From NCBI GenBank assembly GCA_001029795.1, contig CP011216.1:211398-275397 (forward strand): DNA of 64,000 bases, in the 5' to 3' direction. The stretch comes from a candidate division Kazan bacterium GW2011_GWA1_50_15. GTDB lineage: Bacteria > Patescibacteriota > Kazan-3B-28. Made by a program: the position numbers and the translations under genes. The notes beneath the pieces are model-generated. The model saw nothing but the letters and a program-made list of their open reading frames with translations, did no database searches and was not told where the DNA came from. This document shows, piece by piece, positions 21,977 through 62,130 of this stretch. Every line of letters starts with the position of its first letter. The first letter of the stretch is position 1.

Positions 21977-21979
21977 CTA

Positions 21980-22008
21980 TTGACAAAAAATGAAATATAT
22001 GGTACAAT
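21980..22008 (+). promoter_or_regulatory. Consensus-like sigma70 promoter (TTGACA, 17 nt spacer, TACAAT) pointing into the ORF-free region 22010..22445
   Basis: Read directly. It is divergent from the mfd start and no plus-strand CDS follows. Confidence 0.45.
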
Positions 22009-22035
22009 GAAATGATAATCGAATCCCCTATCGGT

Positions 22036-22190
22036 GTCATCCTGAACTTGATTCAGGATCCATTCCCCTCTCCTCTTTCGTCATTCCAGCGGAGGTGGGA
22101 ATCCAGGCCGGATAAGAATAATTTTTCTTTTTCTGTCTGGACCCCGGGTCAAGCCCGGGATGACAGAAAGATGTGGTCGGGATGACGAAG
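22036..22190. repeat. Cluster of GC-rich palindromic repeat units (GTCATCCTGAACTTGATTCAGGATCC; CGTCATTCCAGCGGAGGTGGGAATCC; CTGGACCCCGGGTCAAGCCCGGGATGAC; GGGATGACGAAG)
   Basis: Each unit is an inverted repeat with GTCATYCC / GGRATGAC termini. Related copies are at 29134..29224, 41268..41352, 54479..54557 and 62105..62130. Confidence 0.55.
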
Positions 22191-22421
22191 AAGGAAATGG
22201 TTTGCAACTTGTCACTTATGACCTTTAACTTTTCACTGGTTCAGCGATAGGTGGGAGGGTCTTGCTCGTGAATGACTGTTCTACCCTCCTTGAACAGCGC
22301 TTTGCGAGCAAAACTCTCCCTGCTTATTCTACCGGTGTCCCATCCCATTAAATCTCACCTTCTGGGATTGGTACAAAAGCCGAATGGCTGATACCGGGAT
22401 TCTGGGGAGAAAATTGCAAGA

Positions 22422-22447
22422 GGAAGGCATCGTCCTTCCTTTTGCTT
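22422..22447 (+). terminator. Plus-strand rho-independent terminator (GGAAGGcatcgtCCTTCC + TTTTGCTT) ending the ORF-free region
   Basis: Stem-loop followed by a T-tract on the plus strand only. Overlaps the pth stop codon. Confidence 0.5.
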
Positions 22448-22970
22448 ATAAAAGCATCTCGATTACCTGGGGTAAGACCGCTTTGACGGCGGTCATTTCT
22501 TTTGCGGTGAACTGGCGCAGGACGAATTCGGCTGTGTCGATATTAGGCGAACCAATTCCGATCTTGAGGCGAGAGAGGTTGGTAGTTTGTAGCTGGTCGA
22601 TGACGGACTGCATCCCCTTGTGTCCGGCGCTACTCCCCTTCTCCCGCAGGCGCAGTTCCCCCAAGGGTAGGTCGACATCGTCATAGACCACTGTCAGGTT
22701 CTTCTGGGGGATATTGAAATGCTTTAACAGCCGCGTCACCACGCTGCCCGAATTATTCATCAGTTTAGTGGGCTTCGCAAGGATTATCTTGTCAGCCCGG
22801 ACGATGCTAGCGCCGAGCTTTTTGTCCTCCCGCCACTTGAGTTTTAATTCCTTAGCCAAAAAATCCACCGCCAGATAGCCGGCGTTGTGTCGAGTGCGTT
22901 CATATTGTTTGCCCGGGTTGCCCAGGCCGACTATCAGTTTAGTCATCGTCTTCGGTTTCTGGACGGTCAT
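22446..22970 (-). CDS. pth: Peptidyl-tRNA hydrolase
   Basis: LIVGLGNPGKQYERTRHNAGY motif. The likely true start is the internal Met MTKLIVGLG at 22946. Confidence 0.85.
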   Translation of the reverse strand: MTVQKPKTMTKLIVGLGNPGKQYERTRHNAGYLAVDFLAKELKLKWREDKKLGASIVRADKIILAKPTKLMNNSGSVVTRLLKHFNIPQKNLTVVYDDVDLPLGELRLREKGSSAGHKGMQSVIDQLQTTNLSRLKIGIGSPNIDTAEFVLRQFTAKEMTAVKAVLPQVIEMLL

Positions 22971-23142
22971 CCTTCAGTGCCTCGAGGAGTTCCTTGGCCT
23001 CCCTCGAGATCTCAACCGTATCTTCATGGTAATGACGGTCAGGGGTGACCTCTTCTACCCTCTCAACCTTCTTATTCTTCTCTTTGCGATAGAAAAAAGG
23101 AGGAACCCCCTCGCCGGGGTTAATTTTTCCAATCTCGTTCAT
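22939..23142 (-). CDS. Small acidic hypothetical protein (67 aa)
   Basis: ORF only. Overlaps the annotated pth start; acidic C-terminus. Confidence 0.3.
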   Translation of the reverse strand: MNEIGKINPGEGVPPFFYRKEKNKKVERVEEVTPDRHYHEDTVEISREAKELLEALKDDRPETEDDD

Positions 23143-23153
23143 ACGACAATAGT

Positions 23154-23399
23154 TTAGGCGTATACTTCCGTGCCTTCTTTGACCGGCTCCTTGGTCTGGA
23201 TGCCGACCACGTCGCCCTTTTTAGCCGCGTCCACGCTCGCCCGCTCTATCTGCATGGACTCCACCGGCTGGCTGAACTCCACTTCACCTTTCTTGAAGGT
23301 GAGCGTGTCGCCTAGCTTGACCGAGCTGTTTAAGGACACAATCGCTACTCCGATCTTGTCGTAGTAGTGTGTGACCTTACCGACTGGTTTATCCGCCAT
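23154..23399 (-). CDS. Small conserved-looking beta-barrel protein (81 aa)
   Basis: GGGAGG RBS and a TGcTATAAT extended -10 upstream. The pattern GKVTHYYDKIGVAIV...GD...G resembles small EF-Tu domain-2-like proteins (inference). Confidence 0.45.
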   Translation of the reverse strand: MADKPVGKVTHYYDKIGVAIVSLNSSVKLGDTLTFKKGEVEFSQPVESMQIERASVDAAKKGDVVGIQTKEPVKEGTEVYA

Positions 23400-23431
23400 A
23401 ATATCCTCCCGTGGGTTAGGACTATGACTAA

Positions 23432-23445
23432 TATATTATAGCACC
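23432..23445 (-). promoter_or_regulatory. Extended -10 promoter (TGcTATAAT on the minus strand) for ORF 23154..23399
   Basis: The reverse complement of 23432..23445 reads cggTGcTATAAT. Confidence 0.4.
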
Positions 23446-23781
23446 GAGGGGAAGTATCCCCTCAAACCCCTCTTTTCTTTTTTCTTTCAAGCGTTCACGC
23501 CCCGCTTGATCGGGGCCAAGACGAGCGCCGCATCGCGCTCGACGATGGGCACTTTGGCTTGTCAAAGTGCCATAAATCGCTTACGCAGTCGCTCTCGTTA
23601 TTCATCTCAAGCAATTGCCTTACCGCTCTCGCCAAACTTTCCCGGCAAGCCGGGATTCGAACAGCTGGCTCCGCGATGGCAATTGCTTGGATTCAGGACA
23701 CTCGAGCTCCAATGCTTGGCGGCGAAAGAGTACGCGCCTCCGACGAAGGGCCGGTAGAAGAAACGTCATTGAATAGATAAT

Positions 23782-23805
23782 AAAAAAGCCCTGTGACCCG
23801 GGGCT
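23782..23805 (-). terminator. Minus-strand rho-independent terminator inside the ORF-free region
   Basis: aaaaaaGCCCtgtgacccgGGGC: hairpin with an A-tract on the plus side (a U-tract for the minus transcript). Confidence 0.5.
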
Positions 23806-24298
23806 TGTGCTACACTGTAGCTGGCTAATGGCCGATCGGGTCCTTGAGAACCAGGCCTGTATCTGACCGAGAGGGTATGGAGTGCTGACACCTGCTCTGC
23901 AAGGTGGTTCTGACCGGTTAAGACATCAACTGGCGATTGACGGATACTGACCCGCAAGCCCGACAATTGGTCCTCCCCGACTGCTTGCCCGCTTGCGAGT
24001 CGGAGGGTATTGCGTCTTTACGCTGGGAAGCACAGAGATTGAGCAAGTTTCTATGCTTATGTTTAATACCTCCTGTCTTCTGGTGCAAACGCGGACTCGG
24101 CTTTTCTGGAATGGTTCTTAGGATGCCGGTGGGTTGTCTGCCGGGGCCCCGGTGATCCCTCACACCATCGGCGAGGTAACAGAGCAATAGTGATTGCTAA
24201 CCATTCTGGCTCGCAGGCATGCGGGGCCTAGCCCCGGGGAGGGGGTAAAAAGATGGTGAGGCAATCTGCGCCTCGTTACCTGGACTCATTGTTCTTTT

Positions 24299-24329
24299 TT
24301 TCTAACTCTGGCCCGGAGTATAAACGGGC
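24299..24329 (+). terminator. Plus-strand rho-independent terminator 5 nt from the der stop
   Basis: GCCCGgagtataaaCGGGC + TTTTTTATTTT. T-tract only on the plus strand, so it does not terminate der. Confidence 0.5.
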
Positions 24330-24333
24330 TTTT

Positions 24334-25665
24334 TTATTTTGTGGAACTTTTGATTAAGACGAAGCGGATGGGGGTGCCGGTGAAGTCCCAGAGGTTGCGG
24401 AGTTGCTTGTCGAGATACCGCAGATAAGTGAAGTGAACATCCTCGGGGTGGTTGGTTTTTAGTTGGATGATAGGCGGATTAACTCCGACCTGACGGACAA
24501 AGTAGATCTTGGGTGACTCGCGGCGGCCTTTGGGCGGCAGTTCGCGGACGGCCTTTAAGATAGTCCGGTTGAGGTCTTTGCTGGATATTTTTAAGTTCCG
24601 GGCCTGCCAGACCTGCAGGATGAGATCTTTGATCCTATCGACCCGCTGGCCGGTCAGGGCCGAGACATATAGGCGAGGCACCCAGGGGGCGAATTTATAT
24701 TTTTGGTCCAAGTATTTCTCGAATTCGGCGGTAATACTGGCGGATTTTTCCACTAAGTCCCATTTGTTGACGATCAAGATCGGGCTTTTGTAGTTGTCCA
24801 ATATCATCTGCATCACATGCATATCCTGCGCCAGCACGCCTTCGTGGCCTTCCATTAAAAGGAGGCAGATGTCGGCATTTTGGATGGAACGCAGAACATA
24901 CAGGGCGCTGACTTTTTCGATACCCACCTCAACTTTGCCGCGGCGGCGCAGACCGGCGGTGTCGATGAACTCAATGGTTTTGTCTTGATACGGGATGCTC
25001 TGATTGATAGCGTCCCGGGTGGTACCGGCGGTACTGCTGACCAAACTGCGTTCTTTGCCCACTAGTTTATTGAACAGGGTGGATTTGCCAACGTTGGGCC
25101 GGCCCAAAACCGCTACGCGCATAGTTTCAGTATCCTTTTTTCTGGTTCCGGTTTTGACCAATTTTATTTTTTTGAGCTGTTTCACCAGAGTATCCAACAT
25201 ATCCCCTACTCCCTTGCCGCTTAAACCGGAGGTGGCGAAGAGATGTGGGAAACCTAGCTTCAGGAAATCAGAGATGTTGGCTTCAGCGGCTTTGCTGTCG
25301 GTTTTGTTGACTAGCAGAATCACCGGTTTACCGAATCGACGGATAAGTTGAGCGGCTTCGGTGTCTTGGGGGTTCAACCCGGCCTTGGCGTCCACCATAA
25401 ACAAGATCAGGTCGGATGACTCCAGTGCCGTCTTGGTCTGCAAGAGGACGCTCTTGGCTATCTCGGATTTTTCATTCTGTTCAATACCAGCTGTGTCGGC
25501 CACGGTGAAAGTCAGCCCGTTCCAAGCCACATCGCCGAACAGCACATCTCGGGTGGTGCCGGCAATGTTCGACAAGATCGCCCGTCGTTCGCCGATCAGG
25601 CGGTTGAACAGGGTCGATTTGCCCGTATTCGGGCGACCGACAATTGCGACGAGATGCTGGGGCAT
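24334..25665 (-). CDS. der: Ribosome-associated GTPase Der/EngA (two tandem GTPase domains plus KH-like C-terminus)
   Basis: Two G1 motifs (GRPNTGKSTLFN; GRPNVGKSTLFN), DTAG in both domains, NKxD motifs. 443 aa. Confidence 0.9.
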   Translation of the reverse strand: MPQHLVAIVGRPNTGKSTLFNRLIGERRAILSNIAGTTRDVLFGDVAWNGLTFTVADTAGIEQNEKSEIAKSVLLQTKTALESSDLILFMVDAKAGLNPQDTEAAQLIRRFGKPVILLVNKTDSKAAEANISDFLKLGFPHLFATSGLSGKGVGDMLDTLVKQLKKIKLVKTGTRKKDTETMRVAVLGRPNVGKSTLFNKLVGKERSLVSSTAGTTRDAINQSIPYQDKTIEFIDTAGLRRRGKVEVGIEKVSALYVLRSIQNADICLLLMEGHEGVLAQDMHVMQMILDNYKSPILIVNKWDLVEKSASITAEFEKYLDQKYKFAPWVPRLYVSALTGQRVDRIKDLILQVWQARNLKISSKDLNRTILKAVRELPPKGRRESPKIYFVRQVGVNPPIIQLKTNHPEDVHFTYLRYLDKQLRNLWDFTGTPIRFVLIKSSTK

Positions 25666-28786: not shown

Positions 28787-29104
28787 TTAGCCGAGCGGTT
28801 TTCCAACCAAAAGAATGGTCAGTGAGTCGAAGATGTTTTTGAGAAGTGGGAGAATCCCAGGGAACAGGACGACTACCACAATCAACCAGAGCCAATTTTT
28901 CTGAATAAGTCGGAACAGGGCTGAAGCAATCGCTAGAACCAAAATCAGCGACACGATCCACTGATACTGTTCGGGAAAGATACTGATAAAACTGTTGTAG
29001 ACATCAAATAGCCGTTCAACAAAGCCCTTGGCTGCGGTATTGGCCGCCTGCTTGGCTTGGTCGGCGACAGCGTTCGTGAGCGTATTGGCTATCTCATTTC
29101 CCAT
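28787..29104 (-). CDS. Hypothetical small membrane protein (105 aa)
   Basis: Two hydrophobic helices. Confidence 0.4.
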   Translation of the reverse strand: MGNEIANTLTNAVADQAKQAANTAAKGFVERLFDVYNSFISIFPEQYQWIVSLILVLAIASALFRLIQKNWLWLIVVVVLFPGILPLLKNIFDSLTILLVGKPLG

Positions 29105-29133
29105 CTCAAGTTTATTTTAGCATAAGTTTTTGT

Positions 29134-29224
29134 TGTCATCCCGGGCTTGACCCGGGATCCAGATAGAAACAGGAAAATATTTTTTAGCAGGTCTAGATCC
29201 CGGCTCGGTGGCCGGAATGACGGA
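29134..29224. repeat. GC-rich palindromic repeat element (GTCATCCCGGGCTTGACCCGGGATCCAGA ... GGCCGGAATGACGGAG)
   Basis: Near-identical to the reverse complement of 22138..22164. Terminal GTCATCC / GGAATGAC inverted ends. Confidence 0.55.
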
Positions 29225-29233
29225 GAAAGGTGA

Positions 29234-30232
29234 TTATTTTAGGAGTGCTTTAAAATCCTCGACTAGCTTGACTGGGGTGGGATCGATTCCCATTCTCTGT
29301 GCCAAGTAGTAAGAGCTCCAGTCCATTACGCCTAAGGTTGAAAATATCTTCTCGAGGCGGGAACGGCCCATCATATCCCAAATGGTAGCCTTTAACCCAA
29401 TACCCTGCCCGCGGAGGACCTCGGCGGTGATTTCCATCCGTTTATTCGCCCGTGGGTCATCGTCTGGGTCGCGGAGGATAACTACGCGGTAGTTATCTCG
29501 GGTGTTGGTGAAACCGACCATCTCGTTATGGTTGATTTCGGGAAAAGTATTCCAAAAAGCCGGGATTTTTGAGTTCTCGTTCAGTTTTATTTTAGCGATA
29601 CGCGCCACCGGCCAGTAGGCGTCTGACGCGTATACAAGTGGGATAGTCCCAAATAAACTTTCACCAAGTTGTTTCCCGGGTAGTTCAGTGTTGACGGATG
29701 CAAGCCAGTCAGCCATCTCGCGGACCTGTTTTTCGGATACCCATGGCAAGTGACCGGCCTTGATCAACAGGGCGGTGAGAATCGCAAATATATAGCCAGA
29801 GGACATGCGTGGTTGAAAATCGGACGATTCTTTAATGGTTTTAATGTACTGTACACCATCTTTCATCGCGCGTTCCAACAACCGCCCGCCAGAAGCCATA
29901 GCGATAACTTGTGCGCCAGATTCGAGCGCTTGATCGTAAGCCGAGAGAGTTTCTTCGGTATTACCCGAGAATGAATTGGCGATAACCAAGGTTTTGTCGT
30001 CCAGCGGGAACGGAATGGTGTAGTTCCGGCTAATCAGCAGCGGTGTGGTGATGTCCTCGGCGAAGGCGGCGTTCACTAAATCTCCCGCCAGGGCGCTGCC
30101 ACCCATCCCGGTTAAAATAACTCTTTCGACTGGAGTGCGGACTTCGGTTTTTAGCGCTAAATCAAAGCCCTTGGCGAACTGGAGGGGGAAGTCCGCTATC
30201 ATTCGGTGCATGTTGGAGGGGTCTAAAGTCAT
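29234..30232 (-). CDS. Bifunctional phosphoglucose/phosphomannose isomerase (SIS-domain, archaeal-type PGI/PMI)
   Basis: SIS-domain motifs (ILTGMGGSALAGDLV; IANSFSGNTEET). 332 aa. Confidence 0.7.
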   Translation of the reverse strand: MTLDPSNMHRMIADFPLQFAKGFDLALKTEVRTPVERVILTGMGGSALAGDLVNAAFAEDITTPLLISRNYTIPFPLDDKTLVIANSFSGNTEETLSAYDQALESGAQVIAMASGGRLLERAMKDGVQYIKTIKESSDFQPRMSSGYIFAILTALLIKAGHLPWVSEKQVREMADWLASVNTELPGKQLGESLFGTIPLVYASDAYWPVARIAKIKLNENSKIPAFWNTFPEINHNEMVGFTNTRDNYRVVILRDPDDDPRANKRMEITAEVLRGQGIGLKATIWDMMGRSRLEKIFSTLGVMDWSSYYLAQRMGIDPTPVKLVEDFKALLK

Positions 30233-62104: not shown

Positions 62105-62130
62105 GTCATTCCCGCGGAGGCCGGAATGAC
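62105..62130. repeat. 26-bp palindromic repeat unit GTCATTCCCGCGGAGGCCGGAATGAC between pheT and pheS
   Basis: Inverted ends GTCATTCC/GGAATGAC. Homologous to 22079..22104 (CGTCATTCCAGCGGAGGTGGGAATCC). Confidence 0.55.

Follow-up and report, generated by a model that had tools for sequence, protein, structure and literature searches.

What occupies the roughly 930 bp between der and an 81-aa EF-like gene in a candidate division Kazan bacterium, an interval bounded by two opposed terminator-like hairpins? The genomes of candidate-phyla-radiation bacteria are very small and compact, and to our knowledge almost nothing is known of their non-coding DNA. The interval spans positions 23400-24333 of the analysed stretch of 64,000 nt (hereafter, the window), and a preliminary description treated it as a single terminator-bounded unit, possibly a single-copy non-coding RNA (ncRNA) in the order pth - small ORF - X - der. 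Our analysis indicates otherwise: the interval is composite, not one gene, and splits into two, and its conserved part, here termed element B, is a dispersed mosaic repeat found at many unrelated loci.

The longest open reading frames (ORFs) of the interval encode 89 aa on the minus strand and 83 and 72 aa on the plus strand. The longest ORFs yield no Pfam match and the 89-aa frame finds nothing among 1.84 billion representative proteins, in agreement with the earlier statement that the interval holds no convincing coding sequence. Scanning the whole window with Rfam 15 at the gathering score returns only three tRNAs, all outside the interval, and a search of 23300-24450 at E ≤ 10 recovers only terminator-like fragments, none above 24 bits where the cut-offs are 33-71. 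ARAGORN finds no tmRNA in the interval. The earlier failure to match RNase P RNA, tmRNA or SRP RNA by eye is upheld by these searches, and no known RNA family, 6S RNA included, matches the interval in the Infernal/Rfam search.

The features of the interval are given below, with the sense of element B defined as the plus strand of the window.

23400-23463, minus strand: leader, putative extended -10 box and upstream hairpin of the 81-aa EF-like gene
Reverse complement of 23435-23443: putative extended -10 TGCTATAAT, assigned as a promoter by reading the sequence and not by a tool
23446-23463: upstream hairpin GAGGGGAAGTATCCCCTC of the 81-aa EF-like gene
About 23470-23760, plus strand by definition: element B as a whole, the left third of the interval, which holds the 12-bp repeat
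23470-23487, plus strand: T-rich tract CTCTTTTCTTTTTTCTTT, directly 5′ of B in the B sense
23488-23547, plus strand: two tandem a-b-a′-b′ overlapping-hairpin modules, with covariation of both stems in every subfamily
Module 1, plus strand: CAAGCG 23488-93 with CGCTTG 23503-08, and GCCCC 23499-503 with GGGGC 23512-16
Module 2, plus strand: CGAGCGC 23522-28 with GCGCTCG 23535-41, and CATCG 23531-35 with CGATG 23543-47
23548-23571, plus strand: hairpin P1, GGCACTTTG gcttgt CAAAGTGCC, whose CTTG loop core is conserved family-wide
23572-23724, plus strand: long irregular arm P4-P3-P2, from covariance model R1 and per-helix pair counts
Roughly 23577-23590 with 23715-23724, plus strand: helix P4
23591-23598 with 23700-23707, plus strand: helix P3, carrying a tandem TC/TC mismatch
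23608-23619 with 23678-23689, plus strand: helix P2, the 12-bp repeat, extended by ATC/GAT
Inside P2, plus strand: P2b/P2c, CGC..GCCA with TGGC..GCG
23641-23654, inside P2, plus strand: variable tip hairpin
23737-23760, plus strand: optional 3′ accessory module CCTCCGACGAAGGGCCGGTAGAAG, 92% identical to L007 7739-7762
23782-23806, minus strand: intrinsic-terminator-like hairpin, AAGCCCCGGGUCACAGGGCUU then UUUUUAUU, with a U6 tail (-9.4 kcal/mol)
23807-24309, no strand: segment A, orphan non-coding DNA located where relatives carry small cargo ORFs
24310-24329, with tail to 24340, plus strand: intrinsic-terminator-like hairpin with tail UUUUUUAUUUU, U6AU4 (-10.6 kcal/mol)

The outermost segment, 23400-23463, belongs to the 81-aa EF-like gene and not to the inserted element. 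Its leader/-10 region is 87% identical over 39 nt to the comparison loci L098/L099, where it directly follows the der stop, and it is also conserved in L007, L094, L100, L140 and L143. Among more distant Kazan genomes, the distance from der to the 81-aa gene is 80 nt in L096/L097 and 42 nt in L098/L099. Other relatives carry diverse cargo at the site: a 91-aa ORF and B in L007 and L094, a truncated 91-aa-like ORF without B in L140, and ORFs of 231 and 122 aa together with B in L100. Given that the gap measures 40-80 nt elsewhere and that the cargo differs, the interval is best read as inserted, lineage-variable DNA, and the der/81-aa junction appears, from these locus comparisons, to be a hot spot for variable small cargo genes.

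Both bounding hairpins lie at the positions first reported, with the folding energies listed above, and each combines a G+C-rich hairpin with an adjoining U-run in sequence and predicted fold. The loops of both measure 9 nt, which exceeds the limit of the consensus scan and explains why that scan does not list them. The plus-strand hairpin had been placed 5 nt from the der stop; its T-tail in fact overlaps the stop codon TAA at 24334-24336. The two hairpins have in common a perfect 13-nt inverted repeat (AATAAAAAAGCCC / GGGCTTTTTTATT), and since the AATAAAAAAGCCC string also starts the terminators in L007 and L100, we read it as a local terminator consensus. A homologous minus-strand-type hairpin occupies the same place beside B in L100, downstream of the 122-aa ORF, and the position of the plus-strand hairpin corresponds in L007, L140 and L100 to the terminator of a small ORF that converges on der. 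Overlapping the plus-strand terminator is a weak promoter-like match on the minus strand (TCCACA-17-TATACT, 24345-24317).

For segment A, between the two hairpins, searches of the fetched loci with blastn, nhmmer and tblastx detect no homolog. Six assemblies of the same species carry it unchanged, and its core of about 500 nt is absent from all relatives examined, even those whose Der is 88-89% identical. Within 23806-24300 the longest stop-free stretch measures 92 codons, against a shuffled mean of 93, and the segment folds no better than shuffled sequence (z = -0.37 on the minus strand, -0.92 on the plus strand). By these measures segment A appears to be unique to the species and non-coding, with no sign of function. 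Descent from a decayed 91-aa ORF or from the L100 cargo was rejected, as tblastn of the L007 91-aa ORF against the interval returned nothing and no tblastn/tblastx match was obtained for either candidate. We also rejected a mobile element ending in 13-nt inverted repeats, given that the 13-mer is a generic local terminator start and that no second copy was found. The lack of conservation in relatives that the preliminary description named as grounds for abandoning a functional interpretation is therefore observed for the roughly 500 bp between the terminators, but not for 23470-23760.

That conserved portion is defined by covariance model R1, whose seed alignment (A9) excludes the window copy. 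R1 aligns to 23520-23726 on the plus strand across positions 1-214 of 214, with 99.2 bits and E = 4.5e-25. In A9, a plain MAFFT alignment, 87.6% of the cells pair, compared with 35-48% when the partners are slid; 25 of the 53 pairs have changed on both sides, and none of 500 shuffles reaches this level. Extending the alignment to 48 distinct copies (A10) gives 88.2% pairing against 33-49% with partners slid, with 50 of 53 pairs and 473 cells changed on both sides. Changes on both sides are seen in all pairs of helix a (6/6) and helix b (5/5) and in 9 of the 10 pairs of P1, which is paired in 98.9% of cells, while P2 is 96-98% paired, with 8 of 15 (A9) and 14 of 15 (A10) pairs covarying. The B fold is kept by compensatory changes, and the covariation is very strong. 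Its strandedness is less clear-cut: among about 2000 paired cells, 1742 are Watson-Crick, 44 G-U and 49 A-C, so that G-U and A-C are about equally rare and the count reveals no strand preference. The loop-closing pairs of P1 are mixed and carry no strand signal, and the "sense"-strand composition of the unpaired columns, poor in G and rich in C, leans towards the antisense strand.

The 12-bp inverted repeat that first drew attention to the locus is exact, and its interpretation as a sign of real conserved structure proved correct, the repeat being helix P2 of element B. After dinucleotide shuffling, 18 of 2000 versions of the interval contain a perfect repeat of 12 nt or more whose gap does not exceed 100 nt. 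The 90-nt hairpin around the repeat has a plus-strand folding energy of -37.7 kcal/mol (z = -4.8) and a minus-strand one of -43.5 kcal/mol (z = -5.1). The inner hairpin reported within it, CCCGGCaaGCCGGG, is present at 23641-23654. So is the TTCGAA sequence; its palindromy, however, is without meaning, because it is merely the window copy's version of the family motif TCaaACA.

As a unit, B measures about 190-290 nt and comprises at least six helices (up to 7-8). Within its 5′ modules, the spacer between a′ and b′ is only 1-2 nt, which we judge too short for stems a and b to form simultaneously; from this geometry, the two stems probably constitute alternative, mutually exclusive 5′ hairpins. 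An H-type pseudoknot was rejected on the same geometric inference, as a linker of 1-2 nt between a′ and b′ would have to span a stem of 6-7 bp. A similar tandem arrangement of hairpin modules is seen in L126. The conserved unpaired motifs of the long arm are TATTCA, CAAACT, TCGAACA, TTCAGGAC and CTCCAATG, and the accessory module (CGCCGAAGGGCCGRT...) also lies 3′ of B in L113, L119 and L132. An alternative pairing of TTCATTGG with CCAATGG was discarded, since it is not kept in the window-type subfamily, which has CATCTC.

Searching 411 kb of Kazan/Patescibacteria loci with R1 yields 47 genuine matches, with none in L096/L098, and a pattern scan of metagenomes points to 39 loci, nearly all of which nhmmer confirms as members. 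At least ten copies reside on a single 700-kb Kazan contig, all of them intergenic; L132 carries four in 11 kb, one per gap between gene blocks, and copies cluster in certain genome regions. Family membership and multi-copy dispersal are established by these results. Rfam at E ≤ 1 reports nothing at nine other copies in four loci, and full-text literature searches turned up no description of a B-like element. In candidate division Kazan bacteria, B forms an undescribed, elaborately folded intergenic family with many copies.

The window copy shares 85% identity with a non-syntenic copy of the L007 genome (97% over the 5′ part) but only 53% with the syntenic L007 copy, and the best match of its 5′ part differs from that of its 3′ part. 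Comparison among copies shows that they are modular and mosaic, with sequence exchanged between loci. A phage origin of B or of segment A was rejected, as scans of viral contigs recovered neither, a looser pattern giving chance matches only. The consensus ends of B (5′ ttnaAgcG..., 3′ ...CTCCaATGgcng) are not mutual inverted repeats, and in the sole presence/absence case, the PGI / 105-aa gap of L007 compared with the window, the window holds a different insertion. No transposase, terminal inverted repeats or target-site duplication were identified for B, and we hence infer its mobility from distribution and mosaicism only.

Genes downstream of B encode a Mur ligase, RecJ, dCTP deaminase, HisRS, UbiA, sigma-70, a PD-(D/E)XK nuclease and many hypothetical proteins. 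Of the 20 downstream proteins scanned, those with a Pfam match belong to unrelated families and the rest match none, revealing no common function or pathway. In about 32 of 40 copies B points in the same direction as the downstream gene, and roughly one copy in five is antisense to its neighbours; the copies in the window, L007, L094, L100, L143 and L108 run antisense to the genes that flank them. The upstream flank of B is T-rich, its last 25 nt averaging 46% T compared with a background of 26% and reaching at least 60% T in 15 of 42 copies, and the sequence before it forms a more stable fold than shuffled sequence. Downstream of B, 13 of 44 copies have an extended -10 motif within 100 nt on the sense strand, versus none of 44 on the antisense strand. 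A consensus promoter/terminator scan of L132 gives weak support and leaves most of the flanking signals recognized by eye unflagged; the motif count across copies supports those signals statistically. In L126, where copies sit within tight gene pairs with flanks of 27 and 18 nt, B must be co-transcribed. No candidate mobility enzyme was found near B copies; a single IS110-family transposase (L119/L124) lies 519 nt from B, with another ORF start intervening.

We assign a probability of about 0.5 to the reading of the interval as a composite inserted at a hot spot, in which B is a REP/BOX-like structured repeat and segment A is functionless filler or a remnant of lost cargo. Copies of B would be spread or homogenised by recombination or gene conversion, and would mark the borders of transcription units, preceded by a terminator-like hairpin and T-tract and followed by a promoter. 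Read-through transcripts, operon mRNAs or transiently single-stranded DNA could each allow the fold to form, and it may act as a boundary or RNA-end-stabilising structure and not as a gene-specific regulator. Segment A, if transcribed at all, would presumably be so as der 3′ UTR up to the terminator at 23782-23806. Counting against the REP/BOX-like reading, the fold of B is far more elaborate than that of any REP, BOX or Correia element, and its unpaired junction motifs are as conserved as its stems; conserved unpaired junction motifs are typical of RNAs with biochemical function. It is possible, though we lean against it, that B is a new class of functional nucleic acid specific to Kazan-type Patescibacteria. 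It could be an RNA with its own biochemistry (self-cleavage or processing), a switch between the two covarying 5′ hairpins or a scaffold for a lineage-specific protein, or else the single-stranded structure recognised by a novel mobility mechanism that places terminator - B - promoter cassettes at gene boundaries of these minimal genomes. The interpretation of the whole of 23400-24333 as one long ncRNA gene or structured der 3′ UTR draws on the terminator-like hairpins at both ends, the weak promoter-like match at 24345-24317 and z-scores of -3.0 and -3.4 for the folding of 23776-24340. These scores fall to -0.4 and -0.9 once the terminators are trimmed, the 500-nt core has no counterpart even in relatives with nearly 90% identical Der, and the conserved part, B, lies outside both terminators and recurs at unrelated loci; conservation is lacking, which largely refutes this highly improbable reading.

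A functional RNA of a new class (ribozyme, RNP scaffold or cis-acting switch), used by many units and with mobility secondary, would account for the multi-helix architecture with its strong covariation, for the high conservation of the junction motifs TATTCA, TTCAGnAC, CTCCAATG, CAAACT and TCaaACA, for the switch-like covariation of both alternative hairpins a/a′ and b/b′, for the co-orientation of about 80% of copies with the downstream gene and for the co-transcribed copies of L126. It is rendered rather doubtful by G-U pairs no commoner than A-C, which is unusual under strand-specific RNA selection, by downstream genes without common function, by the exchange and mosaicism of copies and by the lack of an Rfam relative. 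Many copies, moreover, have a promoter-like box separating B from the gene and a terminator-like hairpin with T-tract upstream, which would often leave B outside both mRNAs. The same placement between terminator-like and promoter-like signals suits a purely DNA-level role, with hairpins in single-stranded DNA serving an HUH/RAYT- or IS200/IS605-type enzyme or a recombinase, or cruciforms upstream of promoters, and the RNA fold incidental. Nearly all pairing is Watson-Crick with symmetric mismatches, as if both strands or a DNA process maintained the palindromes; both orientations relative to neighbours occur, copies cluster regionally and the family is mosaic. We consider such a role quite unlikely, however, as the only transposase near a copy is the distant IS110-family one and no candidate enzyme was seen, neither terminal inverted repeats nor a recognisable cleavage motif were identified in B, six helices with conserved junctions exceed the needs of known HUH substrates, and the orientation bias to the downstream gene is left unexplained unless it mirrors replication direction.

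Comparison with known systems places the REP/BOX-like reading in context. Like B, the REP/BIME repeats of Enterobacteria and Pseudomonas, which are associated with RAYT transposases, are multi-copy, extragenic, palindromic and mosaic, with stems that pair despite drift; they occur at gene 3′ ends and inside operons, and can be transcribed and fold in mRNA or single-stranded DNA. B shares their multi-copy extragenic dispersal but not their short-palindrome unit: a REP is a single imperfect palindrome of 20-40 nt with a conserved GTAG end, whereas B has many helices, overlapping hairpins and junction motifs. REP/BIME also have a RAYT gene, while no RAYT-like gene was seen near B copies. An 11-nt string, GGCGTGAACGC, is shared with the E. 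coli REP consensus, which we take to be a coincidence, there being no further sequence similarity between B and REP. BOX of Streptococcus pneumoniae, Correia/NEMIS and NIME of Neisseria and ERIC/IRU of enterobacteria resemble B as modular, non-coding intergenic repeats of 100-300 nt with variable numbers of sub-modules and a stable predicted fold; they lie beside promoters or terminators, can alter neighbour expression and differ in distribution between close relatives. B is unrelated to BOX, Correia and ERIC in sequence and belongs to a different phylum, neither the terminal inverted repeats nor the TA duplications of Correia elements were identified in it, and these families have no documented fold with covariation at the level of B or with alternative hairpins.

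T-box and riboswitch leaders share with B a length of about 200 nt, several helices, conserved junctions, alternative pairings and many divergent copies per genome, usually upstream of a co-oriented gene. B departs from them in that its downstream genes share no function, a promoter-like box often separates B from the gene, about one copy in five is antisense to its neighbours, and no such model matches the window copy (E ≤ 10) or the four other loci (E ≤ 1). Integron attC arrays, in turn, also alternate a structured repeat with co-oriented, often hypothetical genes (as in L132, L120 and L126), fold as single strands and mark hot spots with variable cargo, of which the der/81-aa junction would be an example. 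An attC site, however, is a single imperfect hairpin of 57-141 nt with 7-bp core sites and requires an integrase, whereas B is longer and branched, has no such cores by inspection and no integrase in sight, and is separated from the next copy by blocks that include housekeeping genes with their own promoter-like signals.

Occupying gaps between many gene blocks, B yields a covariation signal that ranks among the clearest to be had from about 50 copies. If active as RNA, it would represent a new large structured RNA class of an uncultivated lineage; if active as DNA, it would point to repeat-driven building and exchange of transcription-unit boundaries in reduced genomes. Model R1 lets annotators label long, puzzling intergenic regions of Kazan genomes.

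Two smaller observations concern individual positions of the fold. On the minus strand, GUUCGAAUC of the window copy resembles a T-loop, and a tRNA-like or Y-RNA-like reading was considered on that basis and rejected; the family consensus at this position is TCaaACA, which makes the resemblance incidental. The tandem TC/TC mismatch of P3 corresponds to a stable tandem G-A pair if read on the other strand.

The interval at 23400-24333 lies in a groundwater genome of candidate division Kazan (Patescibacteria/CPR), and the genes flanking it are all on the minus strand.

Genes around the interval
24334-25665, minus strand, der, flanking the interval
23154-23399, minus strand, gene for an 81-aa EF-Tu-domain-2-like beta-barrel protein, flanking the interval
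22939-23142, minus strand, 67-aa ORF between the 81-aa gene and pth, overlapping the pth start
near the interval, minus strand, pth, flanking gene
near the interval, minus strand, mfd, flanking gene

An identical der product is encoded on six public assemblies (GCA_003484385.1 among them), and the interval is unchanged in all six. The nearest other species are Kazan RIFCSPHIGHO2_01_FULL_44_14 (locus L007; Der 89% identical) and that of locus L008 (Der 88% identical). The 67-aa ORF keeps its position in L007, L093 and L145, is replaced or absent in L096, and has only sub-threshold Pfam matches (weak FlgM-like, E = 0.24). Ahead of the 81-aa gene, its leader and -10 region (TATAATATATTAGTCATAGTCCTAACCCACGGGAGGATATTATG; 23400-23445) show 87% nucleotide identity to L098/L099 9960-9998, although the 81-aa proteins of these Kazan lineages share only about 70% identity; for a 5′ leader such conservation is unusually strong.

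The preliminary description had recognized no convincing coding sequence in the interval, and the analysis concurs: a search of 1.84 billion representative proteins brought up no relative for the largest ORF (89 aa), no ORF of the interval matches Pfam, and the longest stretch of 23806-24300 without a stop codon is just as long as in shuffled sequence. RNase P, tmRNA and SRP had not been found by eye, and scans with Rfam 15 (gathering, E<=10) and ARAGORN likewise returned no known RNA in the interval. The 12-bp inverted repeat (23608-23619 and 23678-23689) is exact and encloses a hairpin as described; dinucleotide shuffles yield a repeat of equal quality in 0.9% of cases. Both terminator-like hairpins said to bound the interval exist, on the minus strand at the left (-9.4 kcal/mol) and on the plus strand at the right (-10.6 kcal/mol), and were passed over by a consensus scanner because their loops are 9 nt long; the right-hand one had been placed 5 nt from the der stop codon, which its T-tail in fact overlaps.

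The inverted repeat is genuine and has meaning as helix P2 of a multi-copy, mosaic, highly structured and previously undescribed intergenic element, here termed B (about 23470-23760).

Anatomy of element B in the window (sense, plus strand)
23470-23487, T-rich tract
23488-23516 and 23522-23547, two tandem modules, each with interleaved stems a-b-a′-b′
23548-23571, hairpin P1, with conserved CTTG loop core
about 23577-23590 with 23715-23724, P4 of the long irregular arm
23591-23598 with 23700-23707, P3 of the long arm, always with a tandem TC/TC mismatch
23604-23619 with 23678-23692, P2 of the long arm, containing the 12-bp repeat
within the long arm, inner helices P2b and P2c
23641-23654, variable tip hairpin of the long arm
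unpaired in the long arm, conserved motifs TATTCA, CAAACT, TCaaACA, TTCAGnAC and CTCCAATG
23737-23760, optional 3′ module

The TTCGAA palindrome noted earlier is present, as the local form of the family motif TCaaACA (TCGAACA in the window copy). Since just 1-2 nt link a′ to b′, we infer that a/a′ and b/b′ form mutually exclusive hairpins, not a pseudoknot.

With a probability of about 0.9, B is a family of structured repeats scattered over many loci, and the interval consists of inserted DNA made up of more than one part. A BLAST search of 23400-23780 against L007 unexpectedly returned a second, non-syntenic match, between PGI and a 105-aa ORF, and comparison of first three and then five copies revealed compensatory changes in P1 and in the 12-bp stem. 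Scanning metagenome contigs with a degenerate two-block pattern yielded 39 loci, nearly all confirmed with nhmmer, and the sources of the proteins encoded beside the copies label them candidate division Kazan or Patescibacteria. A covariance model built from 16 seed copies, leaving out the window copy, gives 47 genuine matches in 411 kb and none in L096 and L098, two Kazan loci that lack B; it recovers the window copy at full length (99.2 bits) as the sole copy in the 64 kb. Ten copies had no match in Rfam, and neither literature searches nor a scan of viral contigs brought up anything on B. A single 700-kb Kazan contig carries at least 10 copies (7 of the 39 loci, the two L007 copies and extra within-locus copies), clustered at 37-84 kb and 603-695 kb. 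This contig (Ga0155180_11 / METB01000001; loci L007, L110, L113, L116, L120, L122, L126 and L139) bears 9 of 10 located copies on the same strand, in a pattern search that may have missed other subfamilies; if the contig is a circular genome, the two clusters form one region of ~180 kb.

The fold is supported by two alignments, A9 made with MAFFT alone, without fitting to structure, and A10 comprising 48 distinct copies fitted to the model, whose covariation result carries the usual caveat of such fitting.

Pairing statistics of B (paired cells; partners slid; pairs with changes on both sides; shuffles)
A9: 87.6%; 35-48%; 25/53; 0/500
A10: 88.2%; 33-49%; 50/53 (473 cells); 0/500

Stem b shows double changes in 5/5 pairs in both. 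Strand-specific RNAs normally contain far more G-U than A-C cells; pairs in B are nearly all Watson-Crick (1742, with 44 G-U and 49 A-C). Indications of the folding strand point both ways. Read from the other strand, the P3 mismatch would become a stable tandem G-A pair, and the unpaired columns would be rich in G and poor in C, as RNAs commonly are. In favour of the sense strand, ~32 of 40 copies share the orientation of the downstream gene, and some must be co-transcribed, because their gene pairs are too tight for separate signals. The window copy and its orthologs run antisense to both neighbouring genes, der and that for the 81-aa protein. A dedicated RNA function of B seems rather unlikely, and we regard action solely as DNA as improbable. 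A pathway-specific riboswitch is excluded by the functionally unrelated genes downstream.

A boundary-repeat mechanism, in which B would act as a structure at the borders of transcription units, stands at even odds. Most copies follow a stable hairpin and then a 20-25-nt T-rich tract; the hairpin is often of the GTCATTCC...GGAATC type, which is repeated in these genomes in its own right. Of 44 copies, 13 have an extended -10 motif within 100 nt downstream on the sense strand and none has one on the antisense strand; TTGACT-17-TATAAG-type promoters were seen by eye at several copies, and a simple consensus scanner supports few flanking signals. Locus L132 has, within 11 kb, four gaps separating gene blocks, every one of them filled by a copy of B. 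B behaves like REP/BIME, BOX and Correia-type repeats but appears to lack the defining structural features of each, and we thus consider it a new variant, not a member.

Copies combine tandem a-b-a′-b′ units, tip hairpins and 3′ modules variously, and B presence varies among close relatives. The window copy is 85% identical (97% in its 5′ part) to the non-syntenic copy of the L007 genome versus only 53% to the syntenic one, and its nearest relatives differ between its two halves. Neither a transposase, terminal inverted repeats nor a clean empty site was found for B. In L119 (253-1401; same sequence in L124), a B copy is followed, 519 nt downstream, by a transposase of the IS110 family (Pfam Transposase_20, E = 9e-8), with an apparent HIT-like ORF start between them; the transposase's element may have interrupted that ORF. 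Repeats are known targets of IS110 elements; no connection of this transposase with B emerged.

More distant Kazan genomes have just 42-80 nt between the der stop and the start of the 81-aa gene, whose leader and -10 region are kept there. In nearer lineages other DNA occupies this junction.

Content of the der / 81-aa junction
L007, L094: 91-aa ORF convergent on der, and B
L140: truncated 91-aa ORF, without B
L100: 231-aa and 122-aa ORFs, and B
L143/L144: B, its 3′ modules repeated in tandem
window: B, followed by segment A (23807-24309), 500 nt absent from all relatives

The 91-aa cargo ORF of L140 (1190-1475; 81-aa protein 89% identical) is probably a pseudogene, given an in-frame stop after ~42 codons. 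In L143 (530-720; also L144), ~2.5 tandem ~80-nt units derived from B 3′ modules (...GGCCCTTTGG...GGTCGTCTTGG...CCGCCATTGGAGGAGGGTCATC...) adjoin a full copy.

Absence from relatives, which the preliminary description would have counted against the interval, applies to segment A, which has no DNA or translated homolog in any fetched locus or viral contig; the B part belongs to a multi-copy family. Segment A shows no coding signal, and with the terminators trimmed its folding energy cannot be told apart from that of shuffles (z = -0.4 and -0.9), the apparent structure of the untrimmed segment being due to the terminators and their shared 13-mer, AATAAAAAAGCCC. Because this 13-mer also begins terminators in L007 and L100, it was rejected as a transposon end and represents a local terminator consensus. 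Segment A occupies the place of the relatives' cargo ORFs, and the terminator on the plus strand next to der probably survives from such a gene. Read on the minus strand, segment A would make up a 3′ UTR of der that ends at 23782-23806. A weak promoter-like sequence occurs at 24345-24317. No evidence of function emerged for the 500 bp between the terminators, which we regard as filler or remnant.

A second, shorter repeat family consists of GTCATYCC...GGRATGAC palindromes, located in the window at 21977-22445 (mfd-pth gap), 29104-29234 (gap between PGI and the 105-aa ORF) and 62105-62130; in the window, GTCATYCYSG occurs 7 times, where 1.1 occurrences are expected. Hairpins of this kind with a T-tract lie directly upstream of many B copies at other loci, and the repeat is probably a terminator-like module. 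On the Kazan contig, B is in several instances followed by short tandem heptamers, GATTCAT / GATTCGT (3-5 units; L120 4740-4800 and 6850-6880, L126 4500-4560), and then by a shared module, GGTTCGATGGGTCyCAC...GGCACTAA.
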